From the UHGV virus genome UHGV-0166071: a stretch of 37,836 bases of DNA. One strand, 5' to 3'. Positions 15,241-18,134 of this stretch are shown piece by piece. Numbering within the stretch: the stretch's first letter is position 1; every line of letters begins with the position of its first letter. Under the pieces are notes generated by a model. It had not been told where the DNA came from and made no database searches. It was given only the letters and a program-made list of their open reading frames with translations. Origin of the DNA: a virus. A program made the translations under genes and the position numbers.

Positions 15241-15456
15241 ATGAAATCAATGGACAAAATCTCAACTGGCATTGCCTACGGAACATCTGCTGGTAGTGCA
15301 GGATACTGGTTTTTGCAGTGGTTGGATCAGGTCAGTCCGTCACAGTGGGCTGCGATTGGAGTGCTTGGAAGCCTTGTGTTGGGTTTTCTCACTTATCTGA
15401 CAAATCTGTATTTCAAAATCAGAGAAGACAGACGAAAGGCTGCGAGAGGTGAATGA
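15241..15456 (+). CDS. S: class II pinholin S21 (71 aa) with dual-start motif
   Basis: [71 protein letters not shown] matches phage 21 S as recalled; Met1 and Met4 give antiholin/holin starts. Confidence 0.9.
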
Positions 15457-15953
15457 TGCCTCCATCATTACGAAAAGCCGTTGCTGCTGCTATTGGTGGC
15501 GGGGCTATTGCCATAGCATCTGTGTTAATCACTGGTCCGAGTGGTGACGATGGCCTGGAAGGTGTCAGCTACACACCATACAAAGATATTGTTGGTGTAT
15601 GGACCGTATGTCACGGGCATACAGGAAAAGACATCATGCTCGGTAAAACGTATACCGAAGCAGAATGCAAAGCCCTCCTGAATAAAGACCTTGCCACGGT
15701 CGCCAGACAAATTAACCCGTACATCAAAGTCGATATACCGGAAACAACGCGCGGCGCTCTTTACTCGTTCGTTTACAACGTGGGCGCTGGCAATTTCAGA
15801 ACATCGACGCTTCTTCGCAAAATCAACCAGGGTGATATCAAAGGTGCATGTGATCAGCTACGTCGCTGGACATACGCTGGCGGTAAGCAATGGAAAGGGC
15901 TGATGACTCGTCGTGAGATTGAGCGTGAAGTCTGTTTGTGGGGGCAACAATGA
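15453..15953 (+). CDS. R: SAR endolysin (lysozyme-type), R21-like
   Basis: N-terminal Gly/Ala-rich signal-anchor-release segment ([20 protein letters not shown]) followed by a lysozyme-like domain; overlaps the S stop. Confidence 0.88.
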
Positions 15954-16041: not shown

Positions 16042-16503
16042 ATGAGTCGGTTAACCGCGATTATCTCCGCTCTGGTCATCTGCATCATCGTCTGCCTGTC
16101 ATTGGCTGTTAATCATTACCGTGATAACGCAATCGCCTACAAAGAGCAGCGCGATAACAAGGCCAGTGAACTGGAGAAGGCGAACGCCACCATTACTGAC
16201 ATGCAGCAACGCCAGCGTGATGCTGATGCACTCGATGCTAAATACACCGGAGAACTAGCTGATGCGAAAAAGCAGCTTGATGATCTGCAGCGTTGTGTTC
16301 GCACTGGCAAGTGTGGGCTGCACTTCAATGCCCGATGTCCAGCGAGCGGAAAGACCGGCACCGGCAGCTTGGGCGATGCTTCCAGCCCCGGACTTACTGA
16401 CTCCGCTGAACGGGATTATTTCACCCTCAGAGAGCGAATCGTCACAGTGACGAAGCAGGTCGGCTACTTGCAGGACTACATCAAAGAGCAGTGTTCAAAT
16501 TAG
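16042..16503 (+). CDS. Rz: Rz inner-membrane spanin (153 aa)
   Basis: [38 protein letters not shown].. matches lambda Rz; internal ATG chosen over the track start at 15913, which overlaps the endolysin gene. Confidence 0.8.
16262..16450 (+). CDS. Rz1: Rz1 outer-membrane lipoprotein spanin, nested in Rz in the +1 frame
   Basis: Lipobox-like ALASVGC, Pro-rich segment and ..[11 protein letters not shown] motif as in lambda Rz1; entirely embedded in Rz. Confidence 0.8.
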
Positions 16504-16561
16504 TGTTAATGAAGAATTTTAAGGGTAATATTATCTCTATTTCTCAGGATGGAGGTAATTT

Positions 16562-16969
16562 ATGCAGACCGATCTGGAATACTTGAAGGGAATGTTAGGG
16601 GTCTTTATTAAGGCTGGCGGACCATTGATATCAGCTAATGACCTTAAAAAAGCTGGATACGAAATAAGCAGCGATAAAGGACTCTTTCATTACTACCAAT
16701 TGATTGAGAGAGGTTATATTAGTAACCATTTTCTAGAAATAGGCGATCCTAAGAAATTAGGACTTACTATTGGGCTTAATGAAATCCGTGAATGGCCAGC
16801 CAATGTAAGACTCACGTCATCAGGCCAAGAGTTTGCAGAAACCCTTCAACAAAAGGCTGTTTTTGAGAAGCTAAAAACAATTAGCGATCAACCATTATCG
16901 GTATTGAAAGATGTTGGTGTAGAGCTTCTAAAATCCTACGCAAAAAAGAAATTTGGTCTTTCAGATTAA
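16562..16969 (+). CDS. hypothetical protein (135 aa), AT-rich cargo gene
   Basis: ORF with lower GC than its neighbours; between the lysis cassette and terminase; no confident family. Confidence 0.55.
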   Translation: MQTDLEYLKGMLGVFIKAGGPLISANDLKKAGYEISSDKGLFHYYQLIERGYISNHFLEIGDPKKLGLTIGLNEIREWPANVRLTSSGQEFAETLQQKAVFEKLKTISDQPLSVLKDVGVELLKSYAKKKFGLSD

Positions 16970-16990
16970 CTGCCTATGGGCGGTTTTTAT
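16970..16990 (+). terminator. possible weak intrinsic terminator
   Basis: CTGCC-tatg-GGCGG followed by TTTTTATT directly after the stop of the 135-aa gene. Confidence 0.4.
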
Positions 16991-17083
16991 TGCCATTACG
17001 ATGATTCTCCCCATCGTGATGGCAGTATCCCCTACAGAGGATAATTAACCATATATCCCCACAAGCGGATAAAGAGGCTCTCA

Positions 17084-17197
17084 ATGTCCGACATCTACCA
17101 AACCCAAACAGGCGAAACCTTTACGGGCAAGACGTCACGACGTCAGCCTGAGCTGGTTAATGGCTTTATGCAGCTGGCTACCGAGACGGGCGAGTAA
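17084..17197 (+). CDS. putative small protein (37 aa)
   Basis: Own translation MSDIYQTQTGETFTGKTSRRQPELVNGFMQLATETGE; AAGAGG Shine-Dalgarno 7 nt upstream; below the track length cutoff. Confidence 0.3.
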   Translation: MSDIYQTQTGETFTGKTSRRQPELVNGFMQLATETGE

Positions 17198-17285
17198 ATA
17201 ACTCCATTAGGAGAATGTGGAACCATTACACTTTGAGCCGTTAACTGATATTGATAAAGGTAAATAATATCTTGGTTAAGGTTTT

Positions 17286-17558
17286 CTAATAGCCAGCCAT
17301 TTGCAAAATCACAGTTGCAGCAGCAGCGAAAGCTGCATATGAGTTATATTTAGACTGTAACCGCGCAGTTAAGAAAAATTCGTGAAGATCTACATTTTTT
17401 TTGGGATCATCAAATGTAATTGCTACAACGGTGCTTCTACCTGTTTTGACTTTGGCTGTTGCTGATTTGATCCATAACCCAGCCGATAAAAACCCAAAGA
17501 AAATCGATAGTGCATGATGGTCAATTAACCAGTTTTTAATTAGTAATAAATCACTCAT
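17286..17558 (-). CDS. hypothetical membrane protein (90 aa from MSDLLL..), antisense to the late operon
   Basis: Hydrophobic segments (LSIFFGFLSAGLWI; AAFAAAATVILQMAGY); AT-rich; the track start at 17603 would overlap the terminase small-subunit start. Confidence 0.4.
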   Translation of the reverse strand: MSDLLLIKNWLIDHHALSIFFGFLSAGLWIKSATAKVKTGRSTVVAITFDDPKKNVDLHEFFLTARLQSKYNSYAAFAAAATVILQMAGY

Positions 17559-17582
17559 TTTCAATCCAATTGAGACTTTGTC

Positions 17583-18134
17583 ATGGCACTCACCGACAAA
17601 CAAGAGATGTTCTGTCGCGAGTACCTCATCGATTTAAACGCCACGCAAGCGGCTATTCGGGCGGGGTACAGCGCAAAGACAGCTAACCGTACCGCATCCG
17701 AAAACCTGTCAAAACCTGACATCAAGTTAAGAATCGCCGAACTGAAAGCACAACGCAATGATCTTGTTGGTATTAATGCAGAATATGTACTTAATCGCCT
17801 TATTGAAATCGACCAGATGGATGTGCTCGACATTCTCCTGCAAAACGGTGAGTTAAAGCCCATTAAAGACTGGCCTAAGGTATGGCGCACAACGCTATCA
17901 GGAATGGATGTCGTGGAGATGGCATCCGCAGATAGCGCCGCACTTCTGAAGAAAATCAAATGGCCTGATAAGGTCAAAAACCTTGAGTTGCTCGGGCGTC
18001 ATGTTTCTGTTCAGGCGTTTAAAGACAATGTCAAAAATGAAGTGACTGGCGCTGATGGAGGACCAGTCAGAACAGAAATTACCAACTTAACGCCGGAGCA
18101 GGCTGCAGAAGTGTATAAAAAAATGATGGGCTAA
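17583..18134 (+). CDS. terminase small subunit
   Basis: [30 protein letters not shown].. is a typical small-terminase N-terminal HTH; immediately precedes the large subunit. Confidence 0.85.

Follow-up and report, generated by a model that had tools for sequence, protein, structure and literature searches.

Gene content of the lysis-terminase junction

In the viral genome UHGV-0166071, a stretch of 37,836 nucleotides (the window), we investigated the genes lying between the lysis cassette and terS, the gene for the terminase small subunit, which is followed by terL in the context of a lambdoid Escherichia coli prophage. Three open reading frames (ORFs) occur at this junction, orf135 and a 37-amino acid micro-ORF on the late strand and orf90 on the opposite strand; their coordinates, their strands and their location between lysis genes and terminase confirmed an initial annotation of this DNA. 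The locus consists of morons at the lysis-terminase junction, a kind already known, and orf90 is a new occupant of the site held by the pid gene in phage P22. The main features are the following.

16042-16503, plus strand: Rz spanin gene (Pfam Phage_lysis, E = 1.6e-36; phrog_13 aligned from residue 44 of the long ORF)
16562-16969, plus strand: orf135, 135 amino acids, DUF2513-like winged-helix protein, Shine-Dalgarno GGAGG at 16551-16555, GC content 0.38
16968-16990, plus strand: intrinsic terminator right after the orf135 stop, stem AACTGCC/GGCGGTT, loop TATG, T-run
17084-17197, plus strand: micro-ORF, 37 amino acids, 5' stump of a phrog_6581 gene, GC content 0.535
17286-17558, minus strand: orf90, 90 amino acids from ATG, isoelectric point (pI) 9.4, phrog_14357 (E = 5e-62), GC content 0.37
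17559-17582, no strand: cassette-specific spacer of 24 bp in which the translation start regions of orf90 and terS stand back to back
17583-18134, plus strand: terS, Terminase_2 small subunit (Pfam PF03592, E = 7e-40; phrog_51)
17583-17672, plus strand: first 30 terS codons, with near-invariant synonymous sites, the right flank common to the slot cassettes

Rz together with Rz1 forms the conserved left border of the cargo region and terS the conserved right border. The content in between varies among otherwise homologous prophages, with alternative occupants at both the orf135 and the orf90 positions, and the minus-strand gene holds the position of the P22 pid locus (PMC3573128), in support of a cargo site. 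Base composition unlike that of the neighbours was observed for orf135 and orf90, whereas the lower GC content that had also been ascribed to the micro-ORF did not hold, the flanking genes ranging from 0.47 to 0.54. As for the promoter and terminator that a moron in the sense of Hendrix and Juhala has of its own, orf135 has a conserved terminator and no recognisable promoter, and for orf90, which lacks a clear terminator, there is a putative weak promoter by homology with the P22 pid promoter (Ppid). At 99% identity or more, at least 80% of the 1.2-kb locus is present in ten complete E. coli genomes; orf135 was found in 10 complete E. coli genomes and orf90 in 11.

Scans of the three ORFs against Pfam, NCBIfam and PADLOC returned no curated family, the only hits being a sub-threshold DUF2513 match for orf135 and a spurious Cas_Csa4 match for orf90. 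Family-profile sequence searches of the PDB gave no match, as did an Rfam scan of positions 16400-17900, and the number of sites found in a consensus promoter scan of the region was not above that in shuffled sequence. For orf135, 44 homologues with 49-99% identity were found in Enterobacterales, and the ratio of nonsynonymous to synonymous substitution rates (dN/dS) of 0.09-0.16 points to purifying selection. A profile search with orf90 returned 147 homologues, and its dN/dS was 0.08 against a 70%-identical copy (locus L008). Both orf135 and orf90 are therefore real coding genes. Considering all the data, we hold it fairly probable that recombination has set three independent items side by side, with orf90 in the pid slot and served by a promoter embedded in terS.

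A cassette slot abutting terS

A multi-locus DNA alignment revealed a sharp junction, the sequence being cassette-specific to the left of the terS ATG and nearly invariant rightwards, with the right junction of the orf90 cassette just before this ATG. The slot was surveyed in 80 viral contigs found with TerS and in the other loci fetched, and the 72 loci with a conserved terS 5' end were counted. An antisense ORF of at least 50 amino acids, with its ATG 13-38 bp ahead of that of terS, occurred in 66 of the 72 loci, and these ORFs fell into 19 clusters with no detectable mutual similarity. The clusters comprised DUF2158/YodC-like proteins (13 loci), the orf90 family (12 loci, including a 41%-identical member), proteins of 182, 143 and 111 amino acids (7 loci each), a 78-amino acid protein (4 loci), the Pid protein of P22 and BTP1 (2 loci) and twelve more clusters with one or two loci each. 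Moreover, a 46%-identical relative of orf90 is found in antisense orientation upstream of a more divergent Terminase_2 terS, at a distance of 77 bp.

Pfam assigned only DUF2158, a weak CxxCxxCC and a weak DUF2441 to the slot occupants other than orf90, and PADLOC gave no match for the ten longest occupants, so that the slot cannot be called a defence hotspot at present. With its sharp boundaries and its 19 or more alternative cargo genes, nearly all lacking annotation, the slot is a natural place to seek lysogenic-conversion, exclusion and anti-defence functions in lambdoid prophages of Enterobacterales. Visual inspection provided two leads among antisense occupants ending about 20-28 bp upstream of terS (at 3001 in loci L024 and L063), neither with a Pfam or PADLOC match. 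The 182-amino acid protein contains LYRGE, FCWTTD and ENEFTV spaced like the R-S-E triad of ADP-ribosyltransferases, and a 174-amino acid protein contains an RNVRSH (Rx4H, HEPN-like) motif.

On its left side, the orf90 cassette is bounded by the stop codon of the micro-ORF. The initial annotation had described a 37-amino acid ORF with a good ribosome-binding site; a Shine-Dalgarno sequence (AGAGG) is indeed present, while the ORF itself proved to be a truncated copy of a 66-69-amino acid gene. Its match to phrog_6581 (E = 2.7e-14) covers profile positions 1-41 of 66, short of the full length, and the copies in E. coli M10 and 210205630 encode 67-69 amino acids. The DNA homology to the full-length copies ends exactly at the micro-ORF stop codon (GAGTaa versus GAGTGG), and the micro-ORF is a gene stump and not a gene type of its own. 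It carries a further in-frame deletion of 12 bp (four codons) with respect to the full-length copies. Truncation occurred at or near codon 41 in the window and in 10 other orf90-bearing loci, this truncation being common to all orf90-bearing loci of the E. coli type, and around codon 44 in two Klebsiella aerogenes loci; the nonsynonymous and synonymous differences among truncated copies (3-4 versus 1) are too few for a test of constraint. The phrog_6581 gene was lost on arrival of the orf90 cassette, leaving the 37-amino acid stump. P22 orf25 was tested as another phrog_6581 stump and rejected.

Just upstream of the stump, an inverted repeat (GGATA-N10-TATCC) was observed at 17039-17058. Both arms are conserved in E. 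coli M10, HZ13 and 210205630 and in P22, regardless of the upstream gene, and the repeat could be a protein-binding site or a promoter element.

Cassette exchange appears to have proceeded by recombination in the conserved flanks, provided by the terminator and phrog_6581 on the left side and by roughly the first 90 nt of terS on the right side. The right flank was examined in 59 distinct terS sequences, whose 3' halves diverge strongly and whose products fall to about 70% overall amino acid identity to the TerS of the window. Diversity at third codon positions was 0.17, 0.06 and 0.04 for codons 1-10, 11-20 and 21-30 respectively, 0.18-0.20 for codons 41-60 and 0.3-0.5 elsewhere, a contrast that is only indicative for codons 1-40 because only loci with 90% identity or more across the first 120 nt had been retained. 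This pattern of terS 5' conservation fits an additional constraint at the nucleotide level, which an antisense leader, a flank used in recombination or an element of translation initiation could impose.

terS fossils and a putative promoter of orf90

In P22 and BTP1, pid is not located beside the functional terS (gene 3). Beside pid, however, we found about 280 bp aligning to the first 280 nt or so of the window terS (17583-17860; positions 2500-2780 of loci L006/L007), with a mutated start codon and frame-breaking gaps, i.e., a decayed terS fossil. A second case was provided by two K. aerogenes prophages, in which the orf90 cassette lies apart from the intact terS and yet is accompanied by a terS 5' fragment of about 240 bp, corresponding to 82 codons with 89% amino acid identity and ending at a breakpoint unlike that of P22. 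This fragment (2731-2976 of L011/L012) keeps the ATG and about 82 in-frame codons and is left unannotated by gene callers; it could encode a free N-terminal DNA-binding domain of TerS.

The promoter of P22 pid has been mapped, with a -10 box (AATCCT) located 181-186 nt upstream of pid on the basis of up-mutations and gfp fusions and a transcription start site 174 nt upstream of pid determined by differential RNA sequencing, and was described as weak, the leader being exceptionally long (PMC8835761). In lysogens, pid is among the five most expressed genes of the BTP1 prophage (PMC7067206). When the published coordinates were checked on the BTP1 sequence, the pid promoter and the entire 174-nt leader were found to lie inside the terS fossil. 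A terminase gene relic with an embedded promoter would provide a simple evolutionary explanation for this leader.

At the homologous position the window terS carries the following feature.

17730-17758, minus strand: putative weak antisense promoter within terS, homologous in position to P22 Ppid

It consists of a -35 hexamer TTGCGT (17758-17753), a 17-nt spacer and a -10 hexamer GATTCT (17735-17730), from which transcription is predicted to begin near 17723, with a leader of about 165 nt running antisense to the beginning of terS. At these positions each of the 59 terS sequences has TTGCGT or TTGCGC as the -35 and GATTCT, AATTCT or AATCCT as the -10. The interval of 17560-17700, originally suggested for promoter mapping, was therefore probably slightly short. 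By homology with Ppid, we infer that orf90 is transcribed in the lysogen or carrier state from this weak, constitutive promoter within the terS coding sequence, whereas during lytic growth its expression would be swamped by convergent late transcription.

Several observations weigh against this assignment. The putative promoter matches only 3 + 3 of the 12 consensus positions and was missed by the consensus scan, and as the hexamers lie in coding sequence their conservation may reflect constraint on the TerS protein. The terS 5' conservation could likewise be a recombination or translation-initiation feature with no promoter involved. Downstream of orf90 there is no convincing intrinsic terminator (fold z-score -0.25), unlike pid, which has a functional Rho-independent terminator. 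Finally, P22 produces a second, shorter and unexplained pid RNA (the "S-band") that depends on the part of the leader lying over the terS start (PMC8835761).

The poor hexamers and the dependence of the shorter pid RNA on that part of the leader (PMC8835761) would also agree with a different origin of orf90 transcription, either a promoter in the first terS codons or in the 24-bp spacer or spurious antisense transcription only, the terS fossils being accidents of recombination. Two relatives can be cited for the same view: upstream of the 70%-identical homologue in L008-L010, weak similarity extends over only some 85 nt, and a distant relative in L110 has its own 77-bp spacer. The one minus-strand match returned by the consensus scan overlaps the orf90 start codon and is unusable. 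We consider this explanation unlikely, as a P22 promoter-probe fragment without the distal region was silent (PMC8835761) and two independent relocations, of pid in P22 and of orf90 in K. aerogenes, both kept at least 240 bp of terS, extending past the -35 position.

Earlier work had recognised pid as a moron and noted that, in relatives, its site holds a different insert or is empty (PMC3573128). Like orf90, pid of P22 and BTP1 is a small gene running antisense to the late operon, and its start lies shortly before the 5' end of a Terminase_2-type terS, the gap to the ATG being 24 bp for orf90 and 37 bp, to the fossil start, for P22 (offsets of 25 and 38 in the slot survey), and the promoter hexamers of the two loci are homologous in position. 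The differences are that terS is decayed beside P22 pid and intact beside orf90, whose leader would overlap a live gene, and that Pid is a soluble protein of 86 amino acids derepressing the host dgo operon whereas orf90 is a predicted hydrophobic hairpin; BLASTP gave no alignment between the two proteins at E ≤ 100.

A further comparison is with lambdoid morons located between lysis and packaging genes, such as bor of lambda, which is expressed from the prophage. Similarly to orf90, bor is an accessory gene of low GC content that lies antisense in the interval from Rz to the terminase genes. Bor, however, is an outer-membrane lipoprotein, while orf90 has no lipobox and belongs to no Pfam, NCBIfam or PADLOC family and to no named family in the PHROG scan.

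With respect to the cited papers, our analysis adds the terS fossil, which would account for the leader and promoter of pid, the sharp cassette boundary at the terS ATG and the at least 19 cargo families, an advance that is incremental and partly inferential. A broader proposal, which we put forward tentatively as possible rather than probable, is that the first 180 nt or so of such terS genes act as a portable, weak, lysogeny-active antisense promoter and leader for a slot of at least 19 families, and that orf90 is the founder of a family of membrane hairpins of about 90 amino acids, expressed in lysogens, with an exclusion or host-modifying role. If so, the exceptionally long 5' untranslated region of pid would be a fossil terS, and P22 pid would be the only studied member of a slot whose other families are mostly ORFans.

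The orf135 gene and its product

The AlphaFold2 model of orf135 (predicted local distance difference test, pLDDT, 86) shows a winged-helix core, with a three-helix bundle and a beta-hairpin wing, followed by further helices. The last helix (residues 112-131) was modelled with low confidence and yet contains the most conserved sequence of the family (..VGVELLKSYAKKKFGL), forming a conserved basic C-terminal helix (..LLKSYAKKKFGL). The match of orf135 to DUF2513 (PF10711) scored 15.4 bits (E = 0.025), below the gathering threshold of 29.6 bits. Since 36 of 42 family members match PF10711 weakly at E ≤ 0.1, with a best value of 3.7e-5, orf135 is probably a distant DUF2513 relative, and several of its relatives are named DUF2513 by NCBI. 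It shares the winged-helix core with DUF2513/YjcQ-type proteins, to which it adds a highly conserved helical tail at the C-terminus. No function is known for DUF2513 itself. A literature search on this family found nothing relevant, and a fold search of BFVD returned only generic winged helix-turn-helix proteins for orf135.

With its winged helix and basic C-terminal helix, the gene product probably binds DNA or a partner protein. A pI of 7.9, close to neutrality, and a recognition helix that lacks a basic character argue against the first possibility, so that DNA binding is plausible and not assured.

In most of the contexts checked, among prophages with different holins and terminases, members of the orf135 family follow Rz immediately on the late strand, tightly spaced; exceptions are Serratia, where a relative lies directly before terS, and contigs L013 and L014. 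The terminator downstream of orf135 was identified by a terminator scan and its hairpin also appeared locally in the RNA fold. It is present behind the orf135 homologues in 5 of 7 aligned loci, with stem letters that differ in L013 while pairing is kept (CCACC/GGTGG versus CGCC/GGCG), and is maintained in L004, where another gene stands in for orf135. The scan found no promoter-like site upstream of orf135, where the sequence is not conserved between contexts. Altogether, these features are consistent with a late-operon accessory gene having a strong ribosome-binding site and its own terminator, most likely expressed late in infection by read-through of Q-modified polymerase.

Low GC content combined with a dedicated terminator is also the classic layout of a moron expressed in lysogens, and orf135 might then have its own promoter in the 58-bp gap after Rz and act as a transcription factor for host or phage genes or as a repressor-like immunity factor. 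The winged-helix fold would suit this role, as would the regulator Rha, which holds the equivalent position in P22, BTP1 and E. coli HZ13 with no sequence similarity to orf135. Nevertheless, the lack of a promoter-like site and of upstream conservation, the absence of the candidate -35 from E. coli M10 and the tight late-strand placement behind Rz make this a rather doubtful alternative to late expression.

The orf90 protein and its family

Close relatives of orf90 are few, 4 clusters being retrieved by a word-indexed search and 15 representatives by an exhaustive one, and tblastn against 50,697 deposited phage records gave no match. The 147 homologues of the profile search are about 83-100 amino acids long, belong to Proteobacteria and prophages and are nearly all labelled hypothetical, none having a Pfam domain. 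An alternative 105-amino acid form starting at an upstream TTG was discarded, being unsupported by homologues or by the Prokaryotic Genome Annotation Pipeline. Relatives occupy accessory positions in other prophages, several of them antisense to their neighbours; the 70%-identical homologue (L008-L010) adjoins baseplate genes and other homologues are found near integrase genes.

The AlphaFold2 model (pLDDT 81) is a helical hairpin consisting of an amphipathic N-terminal helix, a helix at residues 16-34, a charged loop (KVKTGR...DDPKK) and a helix at residues 58-87 with an Ala-rich end. Residues W29, S32, Q68, N72, A75, A76 and Q86 are invariant in the family. According to this model, orf90 is probably an inner-membrane hairpin with two transmembrane segments, for which the positive loop charges suggest an N-out, loop-in topology. 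The membrane protein predicted in the initial annotation is thus plausible, with two reservations. The Kyte-Doolittle maxima over 19 residues (1.34 and 0.96) are marginal, below the usual transmembrane threshold, those of the relatives ranging over 1.1-2.2 and 0.7-2.0 and being clearer, about 2.0, in distant relatives; furthermore, the BFVD search returned only generic transmembrane hairpins and was uninformative for orf90.

Small prophage inner-membrane exclusion proteins such as HK97 gp15 and T4 Imm may resemble orf90 in size, predicted hairpin topology and accessory position; no sequence or fold match was obtained in the PADLOC and BFVD searches. An envelope-level effect in lysogens, such as superinfection exclusion, is a working guess that we regard as improbable rather than likely; it is only a guess because none of the slot occupants tested, orf90 included, matched a known defence family, a result that speaks against it. 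In any case, a hitherto unstudied family of small, probably membrane-bound proteins shares its slot with P22 pid, whose promoter has been mapped and whose phenotype is known, as is the case for few ORFan morons.

A role of orf90 in lysis timing, as a holin- or antiholin-like factor functionally belonging to the adjacent lysis cassette, could be suggested by its small size, its two hydrophobic helices, the second of which is Ala/Gly-rich, and the vicinity of holin, endolysin and spanin genes. It is very unlikely, considering that orf90 lies on the strand opposite to the lysis genes, matches no holin family, has homologues near integrase or baseplate genes and is replaced by unrelated soluble proteins in sister phages.

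Two recurrent neighbours of the family were recorded. Trypsin_2 serine-protease genes (about 245 amino acids) lie 1-3 genes from orf90-family genes in three unrelated contexts (L110/L112, 4353-5090; L108, 39-776; L113, 1540-2292). As the proteases show no detectable similarity to one another, a specific partnership with orf90 is unlikely and this candidate was dropped. DUF2441 was encountered twice, in the immediate neighbour of the 70%-identical homologue (L008-L010) and as the weak match of a 171-amino acid slot occupant (L042).

Independence of orf135 and orf90

The initial annotation had likened the convergent pair to a two-component exclusion or toxin-antidote system. Among the fetched loci and the window, orf135 and orf90 occur together in 6, all of a single lineage at 98% identity or more, whereas the fetched loci comprise 4 with an orf135-type gene alone and 11 with an orf90-type gene alone; being apart in these 15 loci, the two genes do not show the co-inheritance across lineages expected of a toxin-antitoxin or two-gene exclusion system. 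In E. coli M10 and in several Citrobacter prophages, orf135 and the full-length phrog_6581 gene are followed by a different antisense gene, with no orf90. Conversely, orf90 occurs without orf135 in E. coli HZ13, where Rha takes that position, and in four viral contigs; in the K. aerogenes prophages it follows other late-strand genes, with no orf135, and orf90-type genes without orf135 are also found near baseplate genes. Each gene has its own alternative occupants, Rha or a 161-amino acid protein for orf135 and 18 other protein clusters for orf90. The two genes are convergent and therefore not co-transcribed, with the intrinsic terminator and the phrog_6581 stump in between, and neither matches a described defence or toxin-antitoxin family in PADLOC, Pfam or NCBIfam.

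A unit in which the soluble protein controls or neutralises the membrane protein, suggested by the adjacency, convergence and AT-richness of the two genes and by their almost constant association in complete E. coli genomes, is thus extremely improbable and was rejected, since that association reflects one prophage lineage at 99% identity or more, outside which the genes are separable, far more often apart than together, and separately replaced. The two-gene defence candidate accordingly falls, which saves a campaign of toxicity and phage-challenge assays on the wrong model.

Neighbouring lysis genes

The remaining genes of the lysis cassette are listed below.

15241-15456: holin
15453-15953: endolysin
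16262-16450, plus strand, inside Rz: Rz1 lipoprotein gene, with Rz1 annotated at the homologous position in E. coli KSC64

In E. coli KSC64, the gene for the antiterminator N was observed about 160 bp from Rz1 (2329-3001 of L001). The stretch from the early left region to the end of the lysis genes has therefore been lost in that prophage copy, which is defective.

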